From positions 1 through 11,813 of IMG/VR virus record IMGVR_UViG_2869947659_000003: a stretch of DNA of 11,813 nucleotides; one strand, written 5' to 3'. A program made the translations under genes and the position numbers. How positions within the stretch are numbered: position 1 is the first letter of the stretch; each line of letters begins with the position of its first letter. The stretch is from a virus. Taxonomy: Duplodnaviria; Heunggongvirae; Uroviricota; Caudoviricetes. Shown here piece after piece: positions 1-11,813 of this stretch. The notes under the pieces are model-generated. The model ran no database searches and was not told where the DNA came from. It saw nothing but the letters and a program-made list of their open reading frames with translations.

Positions 1-819
1 TTAAGCAGCCATCTGATGATATTTTTCCCTGAAGGCTGCCGGGGAGATATTCCCCAGACGAGAGTGACGACGCTGACGATTGTAGAAAATCTCAATGTAT
101 TCCCGTATTACTGAGATGGCTTCATCCCGGTTATTAAAACGATAGTGGCTCAGGCTCTCATTTTTCAGCGTTCCCCAGAAGCTTTCCATCGGAGCGTTGT
201 CGTAACAGTGACCTTTACGCGACATTGATGTTTTCAGACCAGACTGCTCCTGTATGACCCGGTAATCGTATGCGCAGTACTGTGAACCTCGATCAGAGTG
301 GTGGATTAGCCCGGCAGGTGGGCGCTGGCTCCTGAGCGCCATAAACAGGGCTTTACCTGTCAGCTCTTTTGTCATGCGCTCTCCCATGGCGTAGCCGACA
401 ATTTCGCACGTATAAACATCTTTGATGCCAGCGAGGTACAACCATCCCTCCTGTGTGGCAACATACGTCAGGTCCGCCACCCAGACCTGATTTGGTGCTG
501 TAGGAGCGAACGTCTGGTTCAGCAGATTTGGCGCAACTGGCAGATTGTGGTTCGGGTTCGTAGTCGCTCTGAACTTGCGTTTCTGCTTACAGCGTAGCCT
601 TAGCTCCTTACGAAGACGTGCCAGTCGGTCACGACCAACGATGATGCCATTCTCTGCCAGCTCCGTCTGGAGCCGCCGGGTTCCATATGTTTCGCGAGTG
701 CGGATATGTGCCACCTTAATCTCCAGTTTTAGCCGCTCATCACTTTGTTTTCTGTCTGAGGGTTCATGCTGTACCCAGTTGTAATAACCGCTCCTGGATA
801 CACCAAATACCTGACACAT
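1..819 (-). CDS. IS3-family transposase OrfB (DDE/integrase catalytic core), probably made as an OrfAB fusion by -1 frameshift
   Basis: 272-aa ORF with rve-like motifs (HSDRGSQYCAYDY, KGHCYDNAPMESFWGTLK, FYNRQRRHSRLGNISP). Stop codon sits at window positions 1-3. The ATG at 819 is probably not the biological start. Confidence 0.9.
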   Translation of the reverse strand: MCQVFGVSRSGYYNWVQHEPSDRKQSDERLKLEIKVAHIRTRETYGTRRLQTELAENGIIVGRDRLARLRKELRLRCKQKRKFRATTNPNHNLPVAPNLLNQTFAPTAPNQVWVADLTYVATQEGWLYLAGIKDVYTCEIVGYAMGERMTKELTGKALFMALRSQRPPAGLIHHSDRGSQYCAYDYRVIQEQSGLKTSMSRKGHCYDNAPMESFWGTLKNESLSHYRFNNRDEAISVIREYIEIFYNRQRRHSRLGNISPAAFREKYHQMAA

Positions 820-854
820 CGCTTCAATGGGAAATTGTTGTCGCCATTGTTCGA

Positions 855-1157
855 TTAACGCGTATTTTTCAGCGACTCCTGTGCAAAATACGCTGTTGCT
901 TTTTTTAATATATCTCGCTCAAGGCGAGCTTCATTTAACGCCTTACGCAGTTGCAGAATTTCAGATTCCAGTTCAGCCACCGTGCGGGAACCAGGAGTAC
1001 CGAGCCCTTTTCTGGCGGCGGTAACCCATTGTCCTAAAGTGCCTTCAGGAAGGGATAATCGGGAAGCGCCTTCACTGATCGAAAGTTGATTTTCAAGAAC
1101 CGTTCTGACAGCTTCGGCTTTGAACTCTTTAGAGTAACGTTGGTTTTTTCTGCTCAT
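855..1157 (-). CDS. IS3-family transposase OrfA (helix-turn-helix DNA-binding subunit)
   Basis: 100-aa ORF directly upstream of OrfB; N-terminal HTH-like region and C-terminal leucine-zipper-like segment (LESEILQLRKALNEARLERDILKKATAYFA) typical of IS3 OrfA. Confidence 0.85.
   Translation of the reverse strand: MSRKNQRYSKEFKAEAVRTVLENQLSISEGASRLSLPEGTLGQWVTAARKGLGTPGSRTVAELESEILQLRKALNEARLERDILKKATAYFAQESLKNTR
897..908 (-). other. Putative programmed -1 ribosomal frameshift site (A-rich slippery run) near the 3' end of orfA
   Basis: Minus-strand mRNA reads GAT ATA TTA AAA AAA GCA at the codons for ILKKA; the IS3 family typically uses an A AAA AAG-type heptamer here. Not experimentally supported. 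Confidence 0.5.
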
Positions 1158-1256
1158 TATTAGCTCCTTCTGATGCCATTCTATTTCAGGAAGGAGTGTC
1201 CGTTAAACTCAGGCTACCTCAGTTCGCCGCTGGCGAATTTCGAAAATATCAACCAG

Positions 1257-1538
1257 TTACCGCCGTAACCGCTCCGGCTTCTTCCAGTGGTACGTAATTT
1301 TTGCTTTTTCCCTGTACGTCTGCACGCGGCGACGGTAGGCCAGCATTTCAAGAACGCGGATCCGTATGTCGCGCATATCAACATCATTAAGCTGGATACC
1401 ATCACGGCGCATCACCTCAGCAACAACACGCACATAATTTTCAGCGGTCACGCTGTCCGGCTGTGTGGCCTGTTCGTCATGCTGCTGGCTGATTCCGGTA
1501 ACGCGGCGGATTAATCCCAGTAGTTCGGCTTCTGTCAT
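1257..1538 (-). CDS. Hypothetical protein, 93 aa
   Basis: ORF with a G-rich Shine-Dalgarno (GGGGG, 4 nt before the ATG). No recognisable family. Stop codon lies 36 bp from the IS end, so the gene appears intact. Confidence 0.55.
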   Translation of the reverse strand: MTEAELLGLIRRVTGISQQHDEQATQPDSVTAENYVRVVAEVMRRDGIQLNDVDMRDIRIRVLEMLAYRRRVQTYREKAKITYHWKKPERLRR

Positions 1539-1564
1539 TGTGCCCCCATCGCTCTGATAGTCTG

Positions 1565-1640
1565 GTGTCGTCGGGTCCTTCCTGGAATTATGGCCCGTTA
1601 CGGGGCGGCGACCTCGCGGTTTTTCGCTATTTATGAGCTT
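1565..1640 (+). other. Lambda-type cos site, copy 1 (cosQ-like ACGGGTCC-type segment plus cosN; 12-nt cohesive-end sequence GGGCGGCGACCT at 1603..1614)
   Basis: Sequence CGGGTCCTTCCTGG...GTTACGGGGCGGCGACCTCGCGGTTTTTCGCTATTTATGAGC closely matches the lambda genome termini as I recall them (right end ...ACGGGTCCTTTCCGG...GTTACG, left end GGGCGGCGACCTCGCGGGTTTTCGCTATTTATGAAAA). Confidence 0.8.
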
Positions 1641-1649
1641 TTTTAGAGG

Positions 1650-1800
1650 GAGGTTGTTGTTTAATTGTTTGTCATATCCATTTGATAACTAAGTAAAAAT
1701 AAAGAGCAATACAACAACCTGATAGTGTTTTTTTGATGCTAAAAATAAAAAAATGCTAATTGAATCAAATAGTTTTAAAAAAATACGTGGTTGTTGTATT
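1650..1800. repeat. AT-rich region with three GTTGTTGT / ACAACAAC repeats on the cosB side of cos copy 1
   Basis: GGTTGTTGTTT at about 1652, ACAACAACC at about 1710 and GGTTGTTGTAT at about 1790, seen directly. Possible terminase-small-subunit or IHF-type binding elements. Confidence 0.35.
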
Positions 1801-1831
1801 GCGTATTTGATGGCGTAACAGAAAGTGATTT

Positions 1832-2272
1832 TTAACTTTGCTGTTCTGTAACGACTGATTGTTCCATGCTGGCACGGCAAACGCTTACGGCATGACGCCA
1901 CCCAGCCAGAAAGCCGGCCATTTTATTTCGCGCTTTGCTCACTTCTTCCGGTGAGTAGCCGTAAATCTGTAAACCTTCATCAAATCTATGTTCTGTTTCT
2001 TCACTGGAGTACTCGTCACGCTCAGATGAAAGCAGCCTGGCAACCATAATTTTTTCCAGCGCACTGGTTTCTACGTGATATCCAATGGCCTCAAGATGGC
2101 TTTTACCTGAAGACCAAAGCAATGTATGCCCGATGTGATAACCGCCGGACTTTCCGCGATCCGCATTAAGATACGGCATCCCTTGTTTGGTCCATGCGCG
2201 AATAGTGGTTCTGTTTACCTTGAAATGTTCAGCTATTTCCTGCTGACTTACAAAACAAGCCTTATTAATCAT
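1832..2272 (-). CDS. Nu1-like terminase small subunit homologue (N-terminal winged-helix cos-binding domain); candidate packaging-redirection protein
   Basis: N-terminus VSQQEIAEHFKVNRTTIRAWTKQGMPYLNADRGKSGG aligns with lambda Nu1 VNKKQLADIFGASIRTIQNWQEQGMPVLRGGGKG. Only 146 aa versus 181 aa for Nu1, with a divergent C-terminus. RBS GAGGT precedes the ATG; the gene sits about 90 bp downstream of cos copy 2, as in lambda. Confidence 0.8.
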   Translation of the reverse strand: MINKACFVSQQEIAEHFKVNRTTIRAWTKQGMPYLNADRGKSGGYHIGHTLLWSSGKSHLEAIGYHVETSALEKIMVARLLSSERDEYSSEETEHRFDEGLQIYGYSPEEVSKARNKMAGFLAGWRHAVSVCRASMEQSVVTEQQS

Positions 2273-2339
2273 AATGTTACCTCAATTGACTGATTAAATG
2301 TTAATCAAGTGGTGGTGGTGTCACCTTCACGGAAAAACG

Positions 2340-2400
2340 TCATAAATAGCGAAAACCCGCGAGGTCGCCGCCCCGTAACGGCTCCATATGCCGGAAAGGA
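2340..2400 (-). other. Lambda-type cos site, copy 2 (cosQ-cosN; cohesive-end sequence reverse-complemented at 2362..2373), correctly oriented for the Nu1-like gene
   Basis: Minus strand reads ACGGGTCCTTTCCGGCATATGGAGCCGTTACG GGGCGGCGACCT CGCGGGTTTTCGCTATTTATGACG, near-identical to lambda cosQ/cosN. Confidence 0.85.
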
Positions 2401-2405
2401 CCCGT

Positions 2406-2430
2406 AAAAAAAAGCCGGATTTCTCCGGCC
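2406..2430 (-). terminator. Rho-independent terminator downstream of the capsid-like operon
   Basis: Stem GCCGGA / TCCGGC with 4-nt loop, followed on the minus strand by eight U residues. Confidence 0.7.
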
Positions 2431-2435
2431 TTGTC

Positions 2436-2849
2436 TCAGATGGTTTTCAGTATGCGATCGATGTCGCCGTCATCGCCCTGGTTTCTGCCATCGTATGCCA
2501 TGCCAGCTGATACGGCTTGCGGGCTGTGCATGTCCATAAAGTTTTCAAAGGCTGCGGTAAGCTCTGGTGCAACCTTTGGGCGCTCCTGCTCTATGGTCAT
2601 GTTCAGGATTTCACGAGCATTATCGACGCTAATACATGGCACGTTTGCCATTGCACGTAACAGCGGCTGATAGTCTTTATGCTCATGAAGCGCCATAATC
2701 GCATCAGCGCGCGGCTTGTCCTGCTCTTCCAGTTTGTTTAGTTGATATACGGCCTCATAGGTTGATAAACCTCTGTCAGCCATTGCCCGCGCTTCGGCTT
2801 TAAATTTACTCGCCAGCGGTAGCGTCATGATGCTTTCATTCGTTGCCAT
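2436..2849 (-). CDS. Hypothetical protein, 137 aa (last gene of the capsid-like operon)
   Basis: ORF with AGGGGGA Shine-Dalgarno, 12 nt downstream of the gpD-like gene. No recognisable family. Confidence 0.6.
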   Translation of the reverse strand: MATNESIMTLPLASKFKAEARAMADRGLSTYEAVYQLNKLEEQDKPRADAIMALHEHKDYQPLLRAMANVPCISVDNAREILNMTIEQERPKVAPELTAAFENFMDMHSPQAVSAGMAYDGRNQGDDGDIDRILKTI

Positions 2850-2861
2850 CGTTCCCCCTGC

Positions 2862-3197
2862 TTATCGGGCCAGCGGCTGAACGGATACGCCGGAACCCGC
2901 AAAGGCGGCGCATTTTTTCGCATCGGTGTCGACGCTCTCAGGCCAGTTAACGGCGGCAATATTGAATATCCCCGTCTTGTAACACTGTGCTGATTTCTGC
3001 TTTGACGTGTCCACAGGGTACGAGGTCAGATAAACAGCCTTGCCAGATTCCTTACCATCCCACGGCTTAAACTCGCCATTGTCCGCCAGCATCAGCGGGG
3101 TAAATTCCTGAATAACGCCAGCATCAGCGGCAAAATGTACCAGCGTCGTGGCGACCTGCTGACTGCCTGCAAATAACTCAATGTATGGAGTGTCCAT
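2862..3197 (-). CDS. Lambda gpD-like head decoration protein homologue
   Basis: TPLMLADNGEFKPWDG...YKTGIFNIAAVNWPESVDTDAKKCAAFAGSGVSV aligns with lambda gpD TPLMLDTSSRKLVAWDG...[35 protein letters not shown] (from memory). GGGGGA Shine-Dalgarno. Confidence 0.75.
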   Translation of the reverse strand: MDTPYIELFAGSQQVATTLVHFAADAGVIQEFTPLMLADNGEFKPWDGKESGKAVYLTSYPVDTSKQKSAQCYKTGIFNIAAVNWPESVDTDAKKCAAFAGSGVSVQPLAR

Positions 3198-3208
3198 AGA
3201 ATCCCCCG

Positions 3209-4264
3209 TTAACCAATTTTGACGGTAACAAATTTGCGAATATCTGCCGGAACCGGCTGCGGTGCGCTGTGCGTCTGCACGTACTCAATCGCCGGATCGC
3301 CGTCCTCAATCCAGTTTTTCGGGTAAAACATGTTTTGCGTTGCGCCTGTTCTTACTGCGTCCTGATCCATAATCGCACCATAGGCCACCAGCCCTTTATT
3401 GTTGGTGTTGCCCAGAACCAGCAAATCAGGCTCAAGGAAATATTTTTCTGTGCCGTCGCTGTCAGTGTATTTGCCGGAATAGACGATAAGGGCAATATCG
3501 CCCAGATAGCCTTTAAAGCTCACCACTTCGCCCAGGTTTTTACAGGCCAGCTCTGCGGCGGACTCTGAACCACGGGAAAGATCGTACAGCTCACGGAATT
3601 TTTTAAAGCTGCGTAACGTTCGCCATACCTCAGCGCCCATAATCATGACGTTTGCGGGGCAACCAGCCTGATCGGCGTATAGTTCGATATCATAGATTGG
3701 ATCGTGGGTTTCTTTGTCCTGCTCTGACCATTTTTTCCCGTCGGCCTGCTCTATGATGTTTTTTTCCGGTATCTTCCAGTCGATTTCATAGCGCTCTATG
3801 CCTTCGCCCTCAATGATGTTTTTTCCGGTCGTTACCGCATTTACCGCCAGCCATTCCACGCGCGCTTTAATGGCGTTTATCTGGCGGCGCATGTTGCCAG
3901 TAATCAGGCGCATACGGCGATAGGTAGGGTCGTTAAGCTGTGCCGGATCTTCTCCAGCCATGCGCATGATGGTTTTCGTTGGATCGATTTCGTGCTTTGG
4001 CTTCATGTAGCCAGGTTTAATCGTGCTGGTTTCGTACCCTTTATCGCGCTGAACCTGGCTACCCACCATAGGCGAACAAAACGCCGACATGGTGACTTCT
4101 TCAATGTCCAGGGTATCCAGCATGATGTTTTGCGTGCTGAATGTCGCCACGTTCGGGAAAAACAGCGTGGTAAACAGCGGACTGAATTTAAATTCCGCAA
4201 TATCCCCGCGATTCAGGTACGCAAAAAGCTGGTTAGTGTTAAGTACCATTGCTTTTACTGTCAT
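3209..4264 (-). CDS. Lambda gpE-like major capsid protein homologue
   Basis: Conserved blocks along the whole 351 aa shared with lambda gpE: EFKFSPLF, KPGYMKPKHE, DPTYRRMRLI, WSEQDKETHDP, WRTLRSFK, RGSESAAE, SFKGYLGDIALIVYSGKY, LVLGNT, FYPKNWIEDGDPA, QSAP. Start codon overlaps the stop of the upstream 68-aa ORF (TAATG). Confidence 0.9.
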   Translation of the reverse strand: MTVKAMVLNTNQLFAYLNRGDIAEFKFSPLFTTLFFPNVATFSTQNIMLDTLDIEEVTMSAFCSPMVGSQVQRDKGYETSTIKPGYMKPKHEIDPTKTIMRMAGEDPAQLNDPTYRRMRLITGNMRRQINAIKARVEWLAVNAVTTGKNIIEGEGIERYEIDWKIPEKNIIEQADGKKWSEQDKETHDPIYDIELYADQAGCPANVMIMGAEVWRTLRSFKKFRELYDLSRGSESAAELACKNLGEVVSFKGYLGDIALIVYSGKYTDSDGTEKYFLEPDLLVLGNTNNKGLVAYGAIMDQDAVRTGATQNMFYPKNWIEDGDPAIEYVQTHSAPQPVPADIRKFVTVKIG

Positions 4265-4470
4265 TATTCCCCCCCGTGAACCTGATTCATACCCAGCGCC
4301 GCGCGTAAATAGGCGCGTACCTGCCAGCCTGTTGACGGCTCAACCATCGCCAGCGGATCAAGTCCTGCCGCAATGCCTGCTTTTACGTTCTGCTGGTGGC
4401 GTTCCTTGAGCGCCTTCACGATGTCGGGGCTTATGTACACCGAAACACCGCCTTTTTTCTCTTCAGCCAT
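4264..4470 (-). CDS. Hypothetical protein, 68 aa (first gene of the capsid-like operon)
   Basis: AGAGGA Shine-Dalgarno upstream; translationally coupled to the gpE-like gene. No recognisable family. Confidence 0.5.
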   Translation of the reverse strand: MAEEKKGGVSVYISPDIVKALKERHQQNVKAGIAAGLDPLAMVEPSTGWQVRAYLRAALGMNQVHGGE

Positions 4471-4498
4471 AGTAAGAAATTCCTCTTTGACTTAAAAA

Positions 4499-4555
4499 AT
4501 CATAACTGGATGTTCATCCAGTTATGATTATAATCATGATCGCATTTTGTGCAAT
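4499..4555 (-). promoter_or_regulatory. Sigma70-like promoter for the capsid-like operon overlapped by a 30-bp perfect palindrome (candidate operator)
   Basis: Minus strand -35 TTGCAC (4549..4554), 16-bp spacer, -10 TATAAT (4527..4532). Palindrome ATCATAACTGGATG tt CATCCAGTTATGAT at 4499..4528 covers the predicted transcription start. Confidence 0.5.
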
Positions 4556-4633
4556 GATATTGAGTTGCGTTGCAAATTATGAAATGATTATCCCGATCAT
4601 GTGTGTCAGTGCACCAAAAAACCTCATATGCAA

Positions 4634-4672
4634 AAGCCCGATAACCCACCTCTGACCTTATCGGGCTTTTTT
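4634..4672 (+). terminator. Hairpin terminator (10-bp stem AGCCCGATAA / TTATCGGGCT, 13-nt loop, T-run)
   Basis: Seen directly; followed by TTTTTTAT on the plus strand. A weaker U-run follows on the minus strand, so it may act in both directions. Confidence 0.5.
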
Positions 4673-4770
4673 ATCTGCCTGCAAAGATGTTGAACAAAAA
4701 TTAACCACAACCATCATCTTTTTTGCATCAAAACAATTAAAAACAATAAATTACGCTCATGATGATGATG

Positions 4771-4847
4771 ACGATAAAATCACAAAAATGCGCTTTTTTC
4801 CGCGCCTCCCGCCCCGTGTTCAGGCCCACCCCGCCAGGAGGACCCGT
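4771..4847 (-). other. Degenerate third cos-like element (diverged duplicate of cos copy 2)
   Basis: Plus-strand 4771..4869 aligns with 2341..2430 over about 100 bp (…CCGCCCCGT…GGACCCGTAAAAAAGCCGGATTGCTCCGGC). The cohesive-end core is not intact (GGGCGGGAGG instead of GGGCGGCGACCT). Confidence 0.55.
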
Positions 4848-4869
4848 AAAAAAGCCGGATTGCTCCGGC
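4848..4869 (-). terminator. Rho-independent terminator downstream of ssb
   Basis: Stem GCCGGA / TCCGGC with loop, followed on the minus strand by six U residues; near-identical to the terminator at 2406..2430. Confidence 0.7.
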
Positions 4870-4885
4870 TTCTGTCACTCGTCGC

Positions 4886-5308
4886 TTAAAACGGTATGTT
4901 ATCCCCGTACGGATCATCATTCCCCGCCTGTTGTTTTGCCCTGTTCAGCGCGTCAGTAGCCTGGCCCTGTTGACCTTTTTTGCCGCCCAGTCGCGCCGTT
5001 CGCGCACTGATTACACTGTCTGCGATAACCTGCCAGCCCTGCCGCGTTTCCCCGTTCTGTCCGGTCCACTGGCTGACCTGCATCGTGCCGGATACGCTGG
5101 CAACGTCGCCTTTTTGATGTTTAGCCAGGAAGTCGGCCTGCTTACCAAATGCGATGACCGATAGCCATAACGTCGCCTGCCCATCCTGCGCCTGACTACA
5201 TGGCAACGATACCGCCATACGCGCCAGCGTCATCGGTGTGCCCTTGCTGGTCTGTTTTACCTGCGGGTCGTCCACCAGCCGCCCGTAAGCGGCTATCTGT
5301 GCTGTCAT
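4886..5308 (-). CDS. ssb: Single-stranded DNA-binding protein (SSB-like OB-fold protein with acidic C-terminal tail)
   Basis: OB-fold-like core (TLWLSVIAFGKQADFLAKHQKGDVASVSGTMQVSQWTGQNGETRQGWQVIADSV) resembling the E. coli SSB core, and a C-terminal tail ending DDPYGDNIPF (compare the SSB DDDIPF tip). Start overlaps the stop of the upstream ORF (ATGA). Confidence 0.7.
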   Translation of the reverse strand: MTAQIAAYGRLVDDPQVKQTSKGTPMTLARMAVSLPCSQAQDGQATLWLSVIAFGKQADFLAKHQKGDVASVSGTMQVSQWTGQNGETRQGWQVIADSVISARTARLGGKKGQQGQATDALNRAKQQAGNDDPYGDNIPF

Positions 5309-5562
5309 AATTCCACCTCTCCGGTTTTAACGTTGATGGTTGTTACCTGTTCCGCTTCGGCAATCTCCCGCTCTGTCAGCGTGGCAAAGTTTGCCGCTGC
5401 TGTGGTCATGAATGCGCTTATCAGGTCGGGATGTGCTTTCGCGTATCCTTCCCCCGTGTTGCGGTCGATGATTTTTATCGCCACTCTCAGCCAGTGCTCT
5501 GTAAGGTCAATGGCGCGGTTATGCTGCTTCTTCTGATTATTAAGTTTTCCTGATGTGCGCAT
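5305..5562 (-). CDS. Hypothetical protein, 85 aa, translationally coupled to ssb
   Basis: ORF with ATGA overlap to ssb. No recognisable family. Confidence 0.5.
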   Translation of the reverse strand: MRTSGKLNNQKKQHNRAIDLTEHWLRVAIKIIDRNTGEGYAKAHPDLISAFMTTAAANFATLTEREIAEAEQVTTINVKTGEVEL

Positions 5563-5610
5563 TTTTATTTTTACCCCCTCGTTTAAAAAGTTTTGAGTTG
5601 TGCCTCCCCT

Positions 5611-5837
5611 TGTCTACCTTATCTACCTTACTGGCTCTCATGCCAGTAATGGCGCGGCTTTCAGCGGGGTAGAGTGCTTTTATCCACTATCTACCCCGTA
5701 TCTACCTCCCTGTCTGATTCAGGTAAAATCAGGTAGAGAGGGTAGATAGTAGGTAGACAGTGAAAAAAGGCTGTCTACCTAAGTTAATATACTGAATTAA
5801 ATGTATTTTTCTTTACTCAGGTAGACAGGGTAGACAG
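5611..5837. repeat. Iteron array (candidate replication origin) with a DnaA-box-like site
   Basis: At least 11 copies of TCTACC / GGTAGA-containing 8-9-mers in both orientations (for example TGTCTACC 5611, TATCTACC 5620 and 5688, GGTAGAGAG 5732, GGTAGATAG 5741, GGTAGACAG 5752, 5820 and 5829, CTGTCTACC 5771). TTATCCACT at 5680..5688 is an 8/9 match to the DnaA box. Lies immediately 3' of the primase gene. Confidence 0.7.
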
Positions 5838-5850
5838 CCATTGCAAAAAA

Positions 5851-7599
5851 TTATAAAAACGCGTCGCAATCGTCTGTTGTTATTGCGTTAGTCTGCGTTA
5901 CTCCCTTAACTTTCCGCGTAATATATTCATGTCCGTAAACTTTCGCGGCTGGCTTCATAGCCTTGCCAAAGTCATTTACGTTTAGCGGTTTGCTCCTGCC
6001 TGCGTATGCCATAAACGCCAGATAGACGCGGTAAAGGCTGTTTCTGGTCGTGTACTTCACTGAATCGCCACCGCCACCCATCATCAGGCCGCGCGCTTCC
6101 TCCAGAAAATTCAGGAACTGGCAAAACTCAATAACCGGATCCGTCTGTTGCTTTATTGCCAGAGCTTCATCACCGTCACGCTGTTCCAGTAGTAAAGCCC
6201 GTGCCTTCTCAGGGTCGGTAAAGTTCGCCAGCAAGCGGCGGATAATGACAGGGATTTCAGCCGCGATCTTTTCCGGTAGCTCCCTGTCTTTTTCTGCCTC
6301 GCTTACGATATTGTCGAAGCGGAAAATAACCCGACGACGTGACACGCCTCCGGCCCGTTCGGTGAATATCATCGGGTTGTTATTGGTCGCCAGCACCACC
6401 GCCCTGATTACCGTAGTGAAACGCTTTTCATATTTCGGGTTGATTTCCACGGGGTCGCCGCCCGTGATTTTCTTGATGCCCGTGCCTTCGCCTGTATATT
6501 TCGGCTGGTCTGCCAGGACGATAAGACGACTCCCGACAACCTGCGCACGCCCACCAGCATCATCAAGCGATGTCATTTCCGCGCTTACCGTGTTTTGTTT
6601 CCCCGCTAAAAGGCTGGCGATGTGGGTGAATGTACTTTTGCCGCTCCCGCCGTCTCCGGTGGCCTCAATAAACATCTGCCAGTCGTACCGGTTCGCCATA
6701 ATCATGTACAGCGCGGCACATATACGCATCATCTTGCGCTGGTCTTTTCCAGCTGCGTGATCAAGCCATTTATGAAAGTTTGGCGCGTTATCGCGGATGT
6801 TCTCCCCAGGTGCTGGTGGCGTGTACTCAATGCCGTTGTGCGTGGTGATCCAGTTCTCCGGCGTGTGCGGGGAAAATTCCCCCGTTTTCAGGTCAAGCGC
6901 ACCATTGGCGAACGGCAGCAAATCGCCGGACGGCTCCCCCATTGGTTCGGCAATAACTTTTAACGCTTCAACGGCGTTATTGATCACGCGTTTGCTGAAA
7001 GTGGCCCTGTGCTCTGAATAGATCGCCACCATTTCGCGGCTCAGCTCCATTGTGCTGATCGGACACCATACCCCGCCGCGCCATACGTGAACGATTTCAC
7101 TTTCCGGATGCACACAAACGCCATCAAAGCGCTCGGCAAGCAGCTGCGCGCGCTCACTGTCTGCCATTTGTGCCAGTTGCGTATTTTTCTGCTCCGGCAT
7201 GGTAAGCCCTGCGGCAATATTTTCACGCTCAGCATTCAGATAGCGCCGCCAGTTTTCACACTTCTGGACGTGCATTCCTTCGGGGTAAAAATTTGCGTCC
7301 TGAATATCTGCCGCCGCCAGCTTCTGACCAATCTTTTTGGTCTCCACTAAATCCAGTTCTCCGGCCTGGTACAGCCTTACGCGCTTTTTCCCATCCGGAA
7401 CAATTTTCAGCGCATCAAGTTCGGCAAGCTGATTTGGCCCAAGCCACACAGGCGGCACATTATCGCCGGATGCGGGGCCATCCTGCTCCTGCCATTGTTT
7501 CGCGTGCGACCAGGCATCACTACCCGCGAAAATAATTACCTCTGTGTCTTTGTGTTTTATTCCGCGTGGCTGTTTTTTTACGTTCGGTGCCAGTTTCAT
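5851..7599 (-). CDS. P4-family primase/helicase (alpha-like replication protein; D5-type SF3 helicase with Walker A)
   Basis: 582-aa ORF with Walker A EATGDGGSGKST and a downstream Walker B-like LIVLAD segment; overall resemblance to the P4 alpha / phage-plasmid primase C-terminal region. Coupled by ATGA overlap to the upstream small ORF. Confidence 0.88.
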   Translation of the reverse strand: MKLAPNVKKQPRGIKHKDTEVIIFAGSDAWSHAKQWQEQDGPASGDNVPPVWLGPNQLAELDALKIVPDGKKRVRLYQAGELDLVETKKIGQKLAAADIQDANFYPEGMHVQKCENWRRYLNAERENIAAGLTMPEQKNTQLAQMADSERAQLLAERFDGVCVHPESEIVHVWRGGVWCPISTMELSREMVAIYSEHRATFSKRVINNAVEALKVIAEPMGEPSGDLLPFANGALDLKTGEFSPHTPENWITTHNGIEYTPPAPGENIRDNAPNFHKWLDHAAGKDQRKMMRICAALYMIMANRYDWQMFIEATGDGGSGKSTFTHIASLLAGKQNTVSAEMTSLDDAGGRAQVVGSRLIVLADQPKYTGEGTGIKKITGGDPVEINPKYEKRFTTVIRAVVLATNNNPMIFTERAGGVSRRRVIFRFDNIVSEAEKDRELPEKIAAEIPVIIRRLLANFTDPEKARALLLEQRDGDEALAIKQQTDPVIEFCQFLNFLEEARGLMMGGGGDSVKYTTRNSLYRVYLAFMAYAGRSKPLNVNDFGKAMKPAAKVYGHEYITRKVKGVTQTNAITTDDCDAFL

Positions 7600-7895
7600 T
7601 TTTTACCCCTGAATACGTTAAGCATCTTTTTTATTTCCTGAATATTGGCGCGTGCTTTCTCCCTGCTGGTTGGTTTACTGCGGGGCGCTGCCTGTACCAG
7701 AGAAAAATCACGCCGAAACTGATAAACAGGCATCACGCAATCATATTCGTAGCCTTCACGACGGTAGGTGATGCGCCGTTCTGCCACGCCTTTAATCGTT
7801 ACCATGCCGCCATATTTATCGCGGTAAATATCGCCGTTCATAAATTCAGGACGAGCGGGGCCGCTGGCAGTAACGCCAGAATTTTTATTTTTCAT
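7596..7895 (-). CDS. Hypothetical protein, 99 aa, translationally coupled to the primase
   Basis: ORF; stop overlaps the primase ATG. No recognisable family. Confidence 0.6.
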   Translation of the reverse strand: MKNKNSGVTASGPARPEFMNGDIYRDKYGGMVTIKGVAERRITYRREGYEYDCVMPVYQFRRDFSLVQAAPRSKPTSREKARANIQEIKKMLNVFRGKK

Positions 7896-7900
7896 GTTTT

Positions 7901-8131
7901 TTATTCTCCGGTGTGCTGCGCTTTATTATTCTCGTGAATTGCCATCACTGTATTTAATTCATTAATAACAGGCGTTAATAGCGTACGCACGGCAGAAAAC
8001 ATCATTGAATCAGATTCATCGCCACTTTCCGGCACATCAATTAACTTAAGTAGTAATGCGTCCATTTCCTTTGCGCGGATTAATGCGTTTTCAGAGTGGA
8101 TTAATACTTCAAAAGGGATTTTATGCATCAC
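7901..8131 (-). CDS. Hypothetical protein, 76 aa
   Basis: ORF in the same operon orientation. No recognisable family. Confidence 0.5.
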   Translation of the reverse strand: MMHKIPFEVLIHSENALIRAKEMDALLLKLIDVPESGDESDSMMFSAVRTLLTPVINELNTVMAIHENNKAQHTGE

Positions 8132-8405
8132 AAATTTTCTCCCTTATTCTTTTAATGTCCTCATTAAGGATGTCTGTAACTTTTATCAGCGAGTTTTTGG
8201 CAATTATTTTTATTGTTTTAAGTTTTCTTTTGTCGTGCTCCGACTGTGATTTTCTCTCCATAATCTCCACCATGTGGGTAACATCAACGAGCGCACGTAT
8301 CAGTATTTGCATTGCTTCTTCTGCTGCGTCCGGTGTGGTTTTATTGCACATGTACCCCTCCGCATTTTTTTTCGTTAGAAATAAGCGTTCTTCTTTCCTG
8401 TTCAT
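8121..8405 (-). CDS. Hypothetical protein, up to 94 aa (start uncertain; internal ATGs at 8351 and 8309)
   Basis: ORF overlaps the upstream ORF (8341..8571) by 65 nt in a different frame, so the true start may be an internal Met. Confidence 0.4.
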   Translation of the reverse strand: MNRKEERLFLTKKNAEGYMCNKTTPDAAEEAMQILIRALVDVTHMVEIMERKSQSEHDKRKLKTIKIIAKNSLIKVTDILNEDIKRIREKICDA

Positions 8406-8571
8406 CGCTCAGGAATACGCAGACCTCACCGCTAAGGCGTTTAAGTAAGCCGATGATTGCCCCTGATTCGCTGTCGGTCATCATGCCAGGGTAATCCTCT
8501 GCCAGTGCGCAAATAACTTCGATTTGGTGGGCGCGTTCTGCTGCCTGTTGTAGTGTGATTTCCTGACTCAT
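8341..8571 (-). CDS. Hypothetical protein, 76 aa
   Basis: ORF whose ATG overlaps the stop of the upstream 66-aa ORF (ATGA at 8568..8571). Confidence 0.5.
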   Translation of the reverse strand: MSQEITLQQAAERAHQIEVICALAEDYPGMMTDSESGAIIGLLKRLSGEVCVFLSDEQERRTLISNEKKCGGVHVQ

Positions 8572-8768
8572 AAGCCTACCCCCTGACGAATACGGGCGGC
8601 GAATACCATCACGCAGCCATCAGGAGATTGCTGGCGTGCTTCCTGTTCGCTGGTGGCCACGATGTGAATCACGCGCGGTTGTGCGGTGCTCAGGGCGATA
8701 AAACGCCAGATGTATTTATTCAGGTTGTACGAGTCCCGCCCTTGCGGGTGTATGGTATAATTTCTCAT
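8568..8768 (-). CDS. Hypothetical small protein, 66 aa (possibly Icd-like); first gene of the replication operon
   Basis: Sub-ORF MRNYTIHPQGRDSYNLNKYIWRFIALSTAQPRVIHIVATSEQEARQQSPDGCVMVFAARIRQGVGL, taken from the C-terminal end of the 469-aa track ORF, with a GAGG RBS. Its WRF...PRV..I.A.SE.EAR...FAAR pattern resembles what I recall of Icd-like proteins in P4-like prophages; tentative. Confidence 0.45.
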   Translation of the reverse strand: MRNYTIHPQGRDSYNLNKYIWRFIALSTAQPRVIHIVATSEQEARQQSPDGCVMVFAARIRQGVGL

Positions 8769-8859
8769 AGCTGCCTCGATAATCTTGCTATCGTTGGTGG
8801 TTAGAAGCCCCGTTACTGCTCCTACAGTGCGGGGTTTCGTCGTTTCTGCACCTTGCATT

Positions 8860-8945
8860 AACAAGGTGTAAGTAACTTTATTTATAGGTGGCTTACATGT
8901 CAATGCTTTTATGTAAGACTTTTTATGTGTATATTGTCTTACACT
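8860..8945. promoter_or_regulatory. Divergent promoter/operator region with four TGTAAG / CTTACA half-sites
   Basis: TGTAAG at 8867 and 8912, CTTACA at 8892 and 8938; CTTACAT-N12-ATGTAAG forms an inverted repeat. Sits between the plus-strand RHH-like gene and the minus-strand replication operon. Confidence 0.45.
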
Positions 8946-8964
8946 TTCATTGAGAGGATTACAG

Positions 8965-9270
8965 ATGGCTACAGGTTCAAAAAACGCAAAATCACAATCA
9001 CTGACAGCTCGGATCCCGCATGATGTTATTGAAGGCATGGAATCCGTAAAACTGGACGGTGAAAGCAACGCCGGATTCATAGTAACCGCCATGCGCGGTG
9101 AAATCGCCCGCCGCCAGGCAGAAGGAAGCAGAGAAAACCCCCTGATTTCTTCGCTCGATGCACTGGCGCAGGTGGAAAAACTCGGAATCAAAGCCGCCGA
9201 GGAGATCGGGCAGCTCGTCACTGTCGCACGTGAAGAACTCCAGCGCCGCAAGACCAAAGAACCAGAGTAA
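8965..9270 (+). CDS. Probable ribbon-helix-helix (CopG/Arc-like) DNA-binding protein, about 101 aa
   Basis: Strong RBS AGAGGA 6 nt before the ATG at 8965 (the track ORF begins at TTG 8950). N-terminus LTARIPHDVIEGMESVKLDGESNAGFIVTAMRGEIARR fits a beta-strand/helix/helix RHH pattern. Fold assignment is by pattern, not by search. Confidence 0.55.
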   Translation: MATGSKNAKSQSLTARIPHDVIEGMESVKLDGESNAGFIVTAMRGEIARRQAEGSRENPLISSLDALAQVEKLGIKAAEEIGQLVTVAREELQRRKTKEPE

Positions 9271-9327
9271 TCACCATCAGCGCCGTGGTGTAAGGTATTA
9301 CGGCGCATTGCTATGCAGGACAACACA

Positions 9328-9501
9328 ATGACCGATAAAGAATTGACCAAAACATTATCACCGGCACGGAAAAGACGGCGCAGAAAGATAGAGCATGAAT
9401 CAGAAAGATTCGCGCCATGTGCTTTTGCCCTTGAGCAATTCCTTAAAGAGTACAGGGAAAAGCGCTCATTGCAGGTATGGCAACGAACTGAACCAGACTG
9501 A
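9328..9501 (+). CDS. Small basic protein, about 57 aa (the track ORF begins at the upstream ATG 9313)
   Basis: AGGA 7 nt upstream of ATG 9328; N-terminal KRRRRK cluster; followed by a plus-strand terminator. Confidence 0.45.
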   Translation: MTDKELTKTLSPARKRRRRKIEHESERFAPCAFALEQFLKEYREKRSLQVWQRTEPD

Positions 9502-9577
9502 TTGCATTGCCCACCAGCCGCAAATGTGGCATTGTTGGCAATGCTCATGCGTTGGGGATAACGTGTAGCTTGTGTCG

Positions 9578-9609
9578 AGGGGCCACCGTAGCGGGTGGCC
9601 TTTGTTTTG
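9578..9609 (+). terminator. Rho-independent terminator ending the plus-strand cassette
   Basis: Stem GGCCACC / GGTGGCC with loop GTAGCG, followed by TTTGTTTTG. Confidence 0.6.
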
Positions 9610-9612
9610 CCC

Positions 9613-9977
9613 GTTATTCGGCAATTGTGGCGCTTCTCCACATGGTTGATATAATCCCACTGCTCAGATTCATTTTTTGCGCAGTAGGTTAATTGTTCAC
9701 AAAGGCGCTCCGGCAACGGGGCGCTTTTTGTTTTTATTAGTTTGTAGAAACCTGACTCAGAGATAATGCTCATATTCTGATTGCCGTCAGGGGTGTAAGT
9801 TAAATTTACTCCCTTTTTATCATCAAACATCTGCAACACTCTGGCGTTAACAATATTGGTTTCACTCCCGCCAGTAAGGCCGGAAATAACCGGAATACTT
9901 TCGGCAAAATTTTGCAGATTCTGTTTTTCAGGACGAACGAAGCCCCGCCCTTGTTCGGGAGAATATCCAGTATTCAT
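9613..9977 (-). pseudogene. Possible 5' remnant of a gene downstream of alpA (N-terminal ~120 codons of the 469-aa track ORF); extent uncertain
   Basis: The N-terminal part (MNTGYSPEQGRGFVRPEKQ...EQWDYINHVEKRHNC) has protein-like composition. The rest of the 469-aa frame runs antisense through the plus-strand genes and is Ser/Cys/Arg-rich, so it is probably not a real protein. No in-frame stop exists until 8568. Confidence 0.3.
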
Positions 9978-10029
9978 GGTTAGATCTCTGTATTAGTGGA
10001 TGGGTGGCGGCTGTGTGCCGCCAGCCTGA

Positions 10030-10218
10030 TTAGTGAACTGCCTCGCAGCTGTCCTTCCATGCCAGAACTTCGGATAAAGACCAGCCAACGGAACGACCGC
10101 CCAGCTTACGCCGTGATGGGAATTGTCCGGCTTTTTCCAGGCGGTACCGACATGAGCGGCTCAGGCCTGTAAGTTGCTGACATTCTTTTTCACGTATAAA
10201 GCGATCTGTGCTTAACAC
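10030..10218 (-). CDS. alpA: AlpA/Vis-like winged-helix regulator (prophage excisionase / transcriptional activator family)
   Basis: 62-aa protein resembling CP4-57 AlpA and P4 Vis-type proteins in size, composition and position next to a P4-type integrase. Start is GTG at 10218 with AAGGGGGA upstream. Confidence 0.8.
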   Translation of the reverse strand: MLSTDRFIREKECQQLTGLSRSCRYRLEKAGQFPSRRKLGGRSVGWSLSEVLAWKDSCEAVH

Positions 10219-10254
10219 AATTCCCCCTTTGTTGTTTCTTAAAGAGTCATTGGG

Positions 10255-10300
10255 TGGATTATTGGGTTGGGTTGTGTCGGATTGTGTCAGGGTGTTTGTG
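10255..10300. repeat. Tandem roughly 10-bp direct repeats (GGTTGTGTC GGATTGTGTC AGGGTGTTTG) upstream of alpA
   Basis: Seen directly, in the alpA 5' region. Confidence 0.4.
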
Positions 10301-10498
10301 GAATGGCAAACACTGGCGGCGGTCGTTTTACAGAAGCATGGGGAATGAGAATAAAAACTCTTTTAATTCATTATGATGCAAAGGCATAAAATTTTACTTT
10401 TACGCCTTTTTTACATATTTTTAAGAGTGATTCGCCAGTGTATAAAAAAACAGTACACCTATAAAAATCAAATGGTTATTACGATGGCTGATTTTTAA

Positions 10499-10560
10499 CC
10501 CGTTGTTCCATTTTGTTCCTTGTTGTTCGTCGTTGTGTCTCGTTGTTTCACGTTGTCCGC
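10499..10560. repeat. Six tandem roughly 10-bp direct repeats (consensus tCGTTGTTyC) just 3' of the integrase gene
   Basis: CCGTTGTTCC, ATTTTGTTCC, TTGTTGTTCG, TCGTTGTGTC, TCGTTGTTTC, ACGTTGTCCG in helical phase. Candidate binding array for Int arm-binding domain, AlpA/Vis or IHF-type proteins. Confidence 0.4.
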
Positions 10561-10583
10561 ATCCTGAAAAATCGCAAAAAAAA

Positions 10584-11813
10584 TTATATTTCTCTGGCTA
10601 TTGGCAATGTGGTTACGTTTTCATGTGTTCCCGCCAGTATCCCTAACCGCTCCGTCCACATATCCAGCGCGTCACGTTTCGCATCCAGATAACGGGAATG
10701 GTTATAGACTCGTTGCATCCCTGGCATCTGATGACCTGTAAGCTGCTCCACGACGTGAGGATCCACGCCTAAATCGTTCAGCATCGTTGTAAAGGTGCGC
10801 CGGATGTCATGCAGTGACCAGTGAGGGTGTTTTAGCCTCCTGTGCGCTAATCTACCGTACTGCGACACGCTTGTTTCCTGTTTCACTTCCCCCAGCAATA
10901 AGCCCGTGTGCCTGTTCTGCTCCACCAGCTGCGTGACGAACGGTAGTATTGCTTCCGGTATGGGCCGGAATATTGCCACCTTCGTTTTGCTGTGTTCTTT
11001 CGGCACGGTCCAGAGCATTTCGGTAAAATCCCACTCGCTGATCTCCGATAACCTCAGTTCTACCGTCCGGCATCCGAAAACAATCAGGAGGCGGATTAGT
11101 GCGACGTAGTAAGGGGAAAATATTTTTTTGTCCAGTGCCTGCAATAATTCGCCAAGTTCTTTGGTGCTTAAGACACGCTCGCTTATATCCGGTTTTTTCC
11201 TAACGTCCGCCACACTCATATCATCAAGAACGTTGCTGATTGCATAGCGCCGCCTCCGGCAGAACTTAAGCGCCTGTTTGCACGTCTGTAGCAAGAATCC
11301 GGCAGTAACAGGCGTTCGCTTTGCCACCTGGTCAAAACAGGCCAGCCAGTGCCGTAGCTCGCATTTATCCAGCGGCATAGCACCAATGTGCTGTATTACG
11401 TGATTATTAAGGCGCTTTTTCAGGGCGGCATAATCCACGCGGTTTTCCTTTGCGTACGACTCAAGCCAGTAGGTGAGCGCATCGCCAACCGTTACCGGCT
11501 TTAACGCTTCCTGTACGGTGTAATTAAGCTCATGACGTGGATTTTTCCCCTCTGCCAGCCATGCGCGACACTGGGCGGCTTTTTCCCTGGCTGATTTCAG
11601 GCTCAGATCAGGATAATTTCCCAGCTTAATGCGTTCCGGTGGTGCCCCCCTTCCCGTTCCGGCCCTGTAAGTGAAATACCAGGTTAAAAGGCCACTGGTT
11701 GAATGCCTGACGCTCAGGTTTCCACCGTCATTAAGAAAGGCTGTTTTTTGGGCGGGTGTGCCGTTGATTTTCCTCAGCTGTGTATCGCTCAGTTTGTTAA
11801 GTGCTCTGCTCAT
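10584..11813 (-). CDS. int: P4-type tyrosine integrase (site-specific recombinase)
   Basis: 409-aa ORF with N-terminal arm-binding-like region and C-terminal catalytic motifs (HDIRRT, GHQ, RVYNHSRYL with the catalytic Tyr). The ATG is at the window edge; alignment with the P4 Int N-terminus suggests this is close to the true start. Confidence 0.93.
   Translation of the reverse strand: MSRALNKLSDTQLRKINGTPAQKTAFLNDGGNLSVRHSTSGLLTWYFTYRAGTGRGAPPERIKLGNYPDLSLKSAREKAAQCRAWLAEGKNPRHELNYTVQEALKPVTVGDALTYWLESYAKENRVDYAALKKRLNNHVIQHIGAMPLDKCELRHWLACFDQVAKRTPVTAGFLLQTCKQALKFCRRRRYAISNVLDDMSVADVRKKPDISERVLSTKELGELLQALDKKIFSPYYVALIRLLIVFGCRTVELRLSEISEWDFTEMLWTVPKEHSKTKVAIFRPIPEAILPFVTQLVEQNRHTGLLLGEVKQETSVSQYGRLAHRRLKHPHWSLHDIRRTFTTMLNDLGVDPHVVEQLTGHQMPGMQRVYNHSRYLDAKRDALDMWTERLGILAGTHENVTTLPIAREI

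Follow-up and report, generated by a model that had tools for sequence, protein, structure and literature searches.

Helically phased repeat arrays in the int-alpA region of an Escherichia coli phage-inducible chromosomal island are candidate AlpA operators

Introduction

Recombination directionality factors (RDFs) bind direct repeats spaced one helical turn apart, and several of them, such as Apl and RdfS, do so both at att sites and at promoters (PMC7498355, PMC11963761). The sites mapped for TorI in attL of the KplE1 prophage present GTTCG-type cores at an exact spacing of 10 bp, arranged in blocks of two and three (PMC2951348), and a sequence check confirmed the KplE1 site sequence.

AlpA is the master switch of Gram-negative phage-inducible chromosomal islands (PICIs), widespread satellites that move virulence and defence genes. 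In EcCICFT073, AlpA activates a fragment carrying its own promoter and not Pint, and it is needed for induction of the island (PMC6092414). [quoted passage not shown] In the literature searched, we found neither a later report naming the alpA inducer nor a description of AlpA binding sites. Elsewhere, H-NS has been shown to repress an alpA promoter in Shewanella (PMC5148205), and a doubled motif has been described at positions -81 and +132 from the attP centre of helper-embedded PICIs (PMC10111431).

Results

The int-alpA region of an EcCICFT073-type island

The sequence analyzed here (the window) comprises positions 1 to 11,813 of viral record IMGVR_UViG_2869947659_000003. It is an EcCICFT073-type PICI of E. 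coli, and its layout matches that of the Gram-negative PICI EcCICFT073 as described (PMC6092414). All long genes of the window lie on the minus strand (Table 1). The integrase presents matches to the Pfam models Arm-DNA-bind_3 (E=2.6e-18) and Phage_integrase (E=5.9e-17). Beyond alpA, in gene order, the island encodes a 469-aa BRO-N/Ant-like ORF and several small ORFs ahead of the D5-type primase, which is followed by an SSB-like ORF, a lambda E-type capsid gene, a decoration gene and a TerS-like ORF. The int-alpA intergenic region shows 99.5% identity to E. coli CFT073, in whose genome it occurs in one place only, and a related intergenic copy is found in about 880 of 5,426 complete E. coli genomes. 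The same island is located between phoQ and roxA in E. coli NCTC86 (locus L001).

Table 1. Features of the window discussed in the text, with positions counted from its first nucleotide.
Feature	Position	Strand	Description
int	10584..11813	-	P4-type tyrosine integrase, 409 aa, N-terminal arm-type DNA-binding domain
Array A	10500..10559	-	Six 10-bp units, G-r-A-ACAA-n-n-n; proposed distal AlpA operator
AT-rich spacer between arrays	10320..10499		GC down to 23-28% over about 10350-10500
Conserved hairpin in spacer	10380..10409		Inverted repeat, AAAGGCrT...ATGCCTTT
Candidate -35 of PalpA	10304..10309	-	TTGCCA
Candidate -10 of PalpA	10281..10286	-	CACAAT after TG; coincides with unit 1 of array B
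Array B	10250..10289	-	TGACACAATC CGACACAACC CAACCCAATA ATCCACCCAA; proposed proximal AlpA operator
alpA	10030..10218	-	Vis/AlpA-type winged-helix protein, 62 aa; GTG start preceded by Shine-Dalgarno AAGGGGG
Primase, D5-type	5851..7599		
IS3-family transposase	1..819		

The product of alpA belongs to the Pfam Phage_AlpA family (E=3e-18) and is 47% identical to P4 Vis. Its AlphaFold model, a single-sequence model with a pLDDT of 88.5, finds its best solved match in the GIsul2 excisionase (8c3t; TM 0.79/0.85), and matches also RdfS (8dgl; TM 0.66) and TorI (1z4h; TM 0.64). Since the EcCICFT073 protein activates a PalpA reporter, AlpA must bind somewhere in the int-alpA region.

We compared this region with 15 further E. 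coli copies and with 67 viral-contig copies harboring the same AlpA type; the E. coli comparison thus encompasses 16 loci at four att sites. A wider, protein-based sampling comprised a contig scan (3 loci) and a homologue search (19 proteins). In several of the lineages sampled in this way (L019, L025, L100-L112) a gene lies between int and alpA and the long intergenic region is missing, and these lineages were used for the analysis of arm layout and left out of that of array A.

Array A presents conserved cores at a constant 10-bp period

Six repeats of roughly 10 bp had been noted in the initial annotation immediately 3' of int, and their periodicity was fully borne out. On the plus strand, positions 10499-10560 read CCGTTGTTCC ATTTTGTTCC TTGTTGTTCG TCGTTGTGTC TCGTTGTTTC ACGTTGTCCG, which on the gene (minus) strand, from 10559 to 10500, corresponds to the units CGGACAACGT GAAACAACGA GACACAACGA CGAACAACAA GGAACAAAAT GGAACAACGG. 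Tandem Repeats Finder assigns a period of 10 to positions 10502-10556, as does a separate repeat finder. The array, which begins 24 nt past the int stop codon, contains five occurrences of GTTGT at an exact 10-bp period with a single slot missed, whereas the longest GTTGT chain obtained in 200 dinucleotide-preserving shuffles of the whole window had three members.

All copies in the comparison retain five or six ACAA cores at 10-bp spacing, despite intergenic identities down to about 68%. Among 27 distinct array segments, the information content is 1.8-1.9 bits at positions 4 to 7 of the unit (A-C-A-A), compared to about 1 bit at positions 1 and 3 and 0.2-0.35 bits at positions 8 to 10. Across 22 haplotypes, polymorphism affects only 1 of 20 core columns of array A and as many as 25 of the 30 columns outside the cores (Fisher p=3e-8). 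Because both classes of column derive from the same sequences and the same tree, this difference is indicative of selection on the ACAA cores and not of recent common descent. The repeats are thus functional-looking, and their pattern of conservation suggests that they constitute conserved protein-binding arrays.

The same evidence bears on the possibility that the repeats have no sequence-specific partner, being either products of slippage or elements acting only through DNA shape, by bending or by the binding of nucleoid proteins. The gain and loss of whole units among haplotypes would be expected of slippage, and the AT-rich spacer, together with the repression of an alpA promoter by H-NS in Shewanella (PMC5148205), would fit a role of shape. 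Against both stand the conservation of cores and the divergence of the spacers between them within the same sequences, and the recurrence of the motif at three other places of the island (see below), and we regard this explanation as very improbable. We also considered that array A might function in RNA, as a CA-rich or Hfq-type element of the int 3'UTR. This candidate was dropped because the motif is also found, inverted, in the att arms and because its period fits the DNA helix.

Array B overlaps a candidate alpA promoter

Three GTGTC-containing repeats had likewise been proposed just upstream of alpA. The third of them (10291-10300) is not conserved in relatives. As redefined here on the gene strand, from 10289 to 10250, array B consists of two good and two degenerate units, to which Tandem Repeats Finder assigns a period of 10 with 2.8 copies over positions 10261-10288. 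Arrays A and B share the core RACAAY in one orientation. Among haplotypes, array B shows both unit-sized and 5-bp indels.

The arrangement TTGCCA-17-CACAAT (10309..10281) is the sole promoter-like site in positions 9900-10700, and a single match of this kind is no better than chance. [quoted passage not shown] We infer from this pattern the position of PalpA, which remains a candidate promoter. Array B spans about -12 to +30 of this promoter. The arrays coincide, then, with the candidate promoter region of alpA, in agreement with the link to alpA expression that had been put forward as a possibility. A position over the -10 and start region is repressor-like, whereas AlpA is reported to be an activator, and this counts against AlpA as the bound protein.

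In every haplotype, 220, 221, 223 or 232 bp separate the last unit of array A from the -10 unit, which corresponds to 21 or 22 turns of a helix with 10.5 bp per turn. This spacing suggests that arrays A and B act together on one face of the helix. At such a distance upstream, a protein bound to array A could not touch RNA polymerase in the ordinary way, a further observation that does not favor AlpA.

As had been described, the segment separating both arrays is AT-rich (Table 1). It holds a conserved block, ACTGnTTTTTTATACAyTrGCGAATcAC (about 10427-10454), and a hairpin that is kept in all aligned haplotypes. Folded as RNA, the hairpin reaches a predicted -16.6 kcal/mol for the gene strand (z -5.7) and -10.1 for the plus strand (z -3.8), with a T-run on the plus strand only; it is likely to separate int from the alpA promoter as a terminator or insulator. 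No Rfam match at E<=1 was obtained in 9950-10650.

Two repeat sets flanking an AT-rich stretch bear a superficial resemblance to a replication origin with its iterons, and in P4 the annotated ori lies upstream of vis. The published PICI origin, in contrast, is located directly 3' of pri-rep (PMC6092414), and the window presents an origin-like site at 5563-5850 with iterons of a different sequence (TCTACC/GGTAGA), none of which occurs in the int-alpA region. Arrays A and B are unchanged in islands encoding a primase, a RepA-type helicase or a DUF927 protein. The arrays remain the same across four att sites and these three types of replication protein, and hence do not behave as origin iterons. 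Given that the primase has its own, different iterons and that the arrays ignore the type of initiator, we rejected an origin-of-replication role, which appears barely credible for this region.

The array motif recurs in both att arms of the island

Comparison with the empty phoQ-roxA site set the att core and the ends of the island in locus L001. The att core, AAATATGCCC, lies about 185 bp upstream of the int start, past the end of the window; both att arms fall outside the window, whose last position belongs to the int start codon. A matrix derived from array A alone was used to scan the 28.5-kb locus for phased triples of units at 10-bp spacing. Array A ranks first, with a score of 37.9; the far att arm (31.6) and the int-side att arm (30.8) come second and third, and array B (19.3) is fourth, ahead of a weaker, core-proximal array (13.6). 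In 100 shuffles of the locus, the maximum score averaged 9.2 (sd 3.4) and reached 19.6 at its highest, so that the significance of array B by the matrix test alone is borderline. The array A motif is therefore found at three other places of the island and nowhere else in the 28.5 kb.

In the att arms, the motif lies on the strand opposite to that of arrays A and B. Each arm module is composed of three or four 10-bp units, followed by GTGCAACGATC and then by two copies of GGTGTAGTTAAT, which form a tandem 12-bp doublet. Measured from the att core, the doublet centres lie at about 92 and 141 bp, and the doublet motif is absent from the window. The presence of the same motif in both att arms ties the arrays to the excision machinery, although RDF sites on both arms are unusual, a point that weighs against AlpA. 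One arm array lies 65-105 bp upstream of the int start, where a promoter scan found nothing. Despite the proximity of this array, Pint is reported to be unaffected by AlpA, which again is not what would be expected of an AlpA site.

The initial annotation had suggested that the arrays, being of a kind typical of recombination-directionality or excision-control sites, may control excision. In support of this suggestion, the repeats are arranged head to tail at one-turn spacing beside a gene of the Vis/AlpA type and their motif recurs in the att arms. The copies in the window, on the other hand, lie 1.3-1.6 kb from the att core, a distance at which they cannot be part of the recombination complex. 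The job of the window arrays is therefore likely to be the control of alpA expression, leaving the control of excision to their sister arrays in the arms. The resemblance to RDF arrays extends to three features, namely at least three direct repeats about one turn apart, copies in the att arms and an element-encoded winged-helix protein of RDF type.

Assignment of the doublets and the 10-bp arrays

The arm modules also allow the 10-bp arrays to be read as arm-type sites for the N-terminal domain of Int, which would either keep PalpA shut while the island is quiescent or be titrated by the arrays, with AlpA or another protein occupying the doublets. Int does possess an arm-binding domain, and in both att arms the arrays point the same way, which is also how arm-type sites are arranged. 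The layout formed by the 10-bp array, the doublet and the int start is kept with the integrase module even in distant relatives, and whether Int or AlpA occupies the doublets was left open in the study of helper-embedded PICIs (PMC10111431). The repressor-like position of array B would also suit Int, Gram-negative PICIs being without a known repressor (PMC6092414).

The form and position of the doublets point instead to them as the Int sites. P4 harbors 12-bp doublets in both arms, annotated as 'attP arm sequence repeats', and this tandem form, like the doubled motif of helper-embedded PICIs (PMC10111431), fits the two copies of GGTGTAGTTAAT and not the 10-bp arrays. Moreover, the sequence of the doublets shifts with the integrase lineage, and the 10-bp arrays resemble the mapped RDF sites of TorI. 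As the doublets are the better candidates for Int sites, the 10-bp arrays are left for a second DNA-binding protein. Distance points in the same direction: arm-type sites fall within a few hundred bp of the core, a range that includes the sister arm arrays and excludes arrays A and B, and runs of six sites at 1.3 kb from the core have no precedent among arm-type sites, whereas arrays of RDF sites at promoters do have one. Finally, AlpA must bind within the PalpA fragment, from which the doublet motif is missing. Binding of the Int N-terminal domain to arrays A and B is accordingly the less likely assignment, and we consider the reading built on it unlikely overall.

Other PICI lineages and P4 share this arm layout with arrays of the GTTCG or TCCG type (TTGTTCG-type in PICI arms), CP4-57 carries two copies of TAGGCCCA at the position of the doublet, and the other PICI lineages present CGAAC-N5-CGAAC pairs just upstream of alpA. 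Within E. coli, AlpA is 90-100% and Int 84-98% identical across the 16 loci, and both are so highly conserved that covariation cannot assign the arrays to either protein. Across lineages, GTTYC motifs occur with the recognition helix RSCRY (the type of the window) and GTTCG motifs with RTTRY. This covariation of helix and motif, the only one found at the level of lineages, is weak, since the motif differs little and the change counts as one evolutionary event.

A possible contribution of helper or host proteins

The arrays, and array A above all, could alternatively dock a Xis/Cox-type protein of the helper phage, or a host protein, that switches on alpA, with AlpA perhaps sharing the sites. 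P4 provides the closest parallel, with three 10-bp repeats (CTTTAAGTGG) located 146-175 bp upstream of vis that are unlike P4's own arm array. The P4 late promoter, from which vis is expressed, is preceded by repeats at which P2 Cox acts, and Saha et al. reportedly located sites of P2 Cox action on P4 in 1989; we take the array upstream of vis to be the target of the helper's Cox and not of Vis. The SOS-independent induction of alpA by lambda and phi80, with its inducer unidentified in 2018 (PMC6092414), the relaxed sequence specificity of RDFs (PMC7498355) and a reported case of excisionase cross-talk with a PICI (PMC11773190) all speak for such a role.

The occurrence of the motif in the att arms of the island itself argues for an island-encoded protein, and a helper protein would require that both lambda and phi80 recognise the motif. 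The X1 site of lambda contains ACACAAC, but its X1-X1.5-X2 region, scored for phased triples with the matrix of array A, reaches no more than -1.6, and beyond this shared ACACAAC we found no support for cross-recognition by lambda Xis. Taken together, these observations make the docking of a helper or host protein distinctly improbable.

Discussion

The reading that best accounts for these data is that arrays A and B are operators for AlpA, which would act as an RDF at the att arms and control its own promoter in the int-alpA region. We hold this to be probably correct, by a modest margin. Each helical turn would accommodate one AlpA monomer, with successive monomers arranged head to tail on the G-r-A-ACAA units. 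At the att arms, AlpA would then direct excision together with Int bound to the adjoining doublets, and in the int-alpA region it would govern its own promoter, in what would correspond to the published positive autoregulation. This promoter would be served by six units some 220 bp upstream and by another two to four that cover its -10 element and start region, and the two arrays may cooperate across the AT-rich spacer, for instance by forming a DNA loop or by reshaping silenced AT-rich DNA. Both the identity of AlpA as the bound protein and the looping are inferred.

Net activation could be achieved in several ways. A loop might displace a silencer such as H-NS; AlpA might contact RNA polymerase directly, as P. 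aeruginosa AlpA does; or activation through array A might be combined with negative feedback through array B. A more elaborate and rather speculative sequence of events, which we deem improbable, would have an excisionase-type protein of the helper, or another helper factor, occupy array A first, much as P2 Cox acts in P4, and open an AT-rich, silenced PalpA. AlpA would next replace it on those sites, locking in expression, and would drive excision from the matching arrays of the att arms. If this were the case, a single motif would couple helper sensing, an autoregulatory loop and recombination directionality, and the split array would be the long-sought induction switch of Gram-negative PICIs.

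For the master switch of these satellites, the present analysis defines a motif, G-r-A-ACAA repeated at 10-bp phase, and locates four arrays of it, one pair at the promoter and the other in the att arms, with conserved helical phasing between the promoter pair. In the form of the 12-bp doublets, ordinary PICIs, P4 and CP4-57 also share the doubled motif that had been reported as exclusive to helper-embedded PICIs. Should AlpA not bind to them, the arrays would still mark another regulator of a well-studied island.

Comparison with known systems places the proposed operators near several characterized proteins. P. aeruginosa AlpA shares the Pfam family name and is likewise a small protein of winged-helix fold, which binds inside a promoter and increases expression downstream of it (PMC7969949). 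[quoted passage not shown] The sequence between the candidate -35 and -10 elements of PalpA is not conserved among the aligned haplotypes, and no terminator was found between the candidate promoter and alpA in the scan of 9900-10700. The defining features of that antiterminator model were thus not found at PalpA, where a mechanism of this type may still operate.

TorI of KplE1 (CPS-53) in E. coli K-12 is similar both in its winged-helix fold, matched by the AlpA model, and in its sites, with GTTCG, GTCCG and GATCG cores that lie beside Int arm-type sites and overlap a promoter. In contrast with the arrays described here, the TorI sites are confined to att and repress the int promoter, whereas in this island a second set lies 1.3 kb away, at the promoter of the regulator itself, and the reported effect is activation; TorI, furthermore, falls below the Pfam Phage_AlpA threshold. 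Apl of phage 186 and Cox of P2 provide the precedent of one protein binding one-turn direct repeats at both att and a promoter. For Apl, five repeats are found at att and seven at pR-pL (PMC7498355), compared to three or four in each arm of this island and, in its intergenic region, six in array A and two to four in array B. Apl and Cox belong to another sequence family and repress their promoters, and their promoter arrays are contiguous, without an intervening AT-rich segment of about 220 bp.

P4 Vis, annotated as excisionase and regulator, is the closest characterised homologue of AlpA. In addition to the arm doublets and the array upstream of vis, P4 presents a four-unit 10-bp TCCG array beside its int-proximal doublet; the motifs differ from those of the island, and int and vis are not adjacent in P4. 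RdfS of ICEMlSymR7A is likewise a winged-helix RDF, which binds attP and its own promoter and coordinates expression with excision (PMC11963761). It forms head-to-tail filaments and works with a P4-type integrase whose arm-type motifs measure 10 bp (PMC11963761). RdfS has an extra N-terminal helix and lacks a definable consensus, in contrast to the sharp core observed here, and the lack of a clear consensus site in a related protein is one more observation that speaks against AlpA. With these likenesses and differences, the arrays of the island are best read as adding one more probable member to the class of dual-site RDFs and regulators.

Elements of the int-alpA spacer and of the alpA leader

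The AT-rich spacer between the two ACAA-based repeat arrays of the int-alpA intergenic region carries a conserved hairpin whose RNA form is stable from either strand, and a T-run follows it 3' only on the plus strand, which is antisense to both int and alpA. This hairpin may terminate an antisense transcript, besides insulating int from alpA. A direct repeat bearing no relation to the ACAA motif places one copy in the spacer and another in the alpA leader, with 181 bp between them, and both copies are kept in all haplotypes. In the diverged haplotypes, the place of the extra repeat unit of the window lineage is occupied by a palindrome of the kind that a dimeric protein might bind.

In other PICI lineages (L100-L112, L019 and L025), the AlpA proteins are 65-72% identical and a gene separates int from alpA. 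Here a hairpin with compensatory changes in its stem precedes alpA. The ribosome-binding site falls in the 3' arm of the hairpin and CGAAC-N5-CGAAC in the loop, an arrangement that suggests translational control of alpA joined with an AlpA-type site.

Features of the island and of its relatives, with coordinates in the indicated record
Feature	Record	Position	Strand	Setting
TCTACC/GGTAGA iterons	window	5563-5850	both orientations	intergenic, 3' of primase gene
469-aa ORF, N-terminus BRO-N/Ant-like	window	8568-9977	minus
YlcI/YnfO reading (NCTC86 annotation)	window	8950-9270	plus	opposite strand to 469-aa ORF
Direct repeat AAT(C/G)ACTCTT(T)AA(A/G), 13-15 bp	window	10419-10433; 10238-10252		spacer; alpA leader
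Conserved hairpin AAAGGCrT...ATGCCTTT	window	10380-10409		mid AT-rich spacer
Perfect 16-bp palindrome CAGTATGCGCATACTG	L005-L016 (diverged haplotypes)	equivalent of window 10545-10565		directly past int stop
Hairpin before alpA	L100-L112, L019, L025 (other PICI lineages)	10-45 nt upstream of alpA start
att-arm modules	L001 (NCTC86 copy of island)	15688-15766; 4734-4802		beyond both window ends
Ori type 2 repeats, 10 bp, CTTTAAGTGG x3	L113 (phage P4)	9176-9205		146-175 bp upstream of vis
Four-unit 10-bp TCCG array	L113 (phage P4)	3966-4010		adjoins int-proximal arm doublet

Coding and putative replication regions

The C-terminus of the 469-aa ORF matches a phage "transcriptional repressor" family. 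The NCTC86 annotation calls this stretch a pseudogene and places a YlcI/YnfO gene on the other strand; the ORF and the YlcI/YnfO gene are both candidate readings of the region. Eleven of the 13 TCTACC/GGTAGA occurrences in the window fall within 5613-5829, and this iteron-dense region has the same position as the published PICI replication origin.

Attachment arms and comparison with phage P4

The two att arms of the NCTC86 island share a common module, in which three or four 10-bp RACAAY units are followed by GTGCAACGATC and then by a tandem 12-bp doublet (GGTGTAGTTAAT x2). Measured from the core AAATATGCCC, the doublet centres lie at about 141 and 92 bp. The far arm known from NCTC86 is absent from the window. 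At its left end, the window holds an IS3-family transposase gene (rve domains; 1-819) that continues past that end.

P4, CP4-57 and other PICI lineages have doublets analogous to those of the island arms; a "doubled motif" resembling them has been called unique to helper-embedded PICIs (PMC10111431). With its ori type 2 repeats upstream of vis, the homologue of alpA, and its TCCG array at the arm doublet, P4 matches the PICI in having both kinds of array, except that it builds them on two different motifs.
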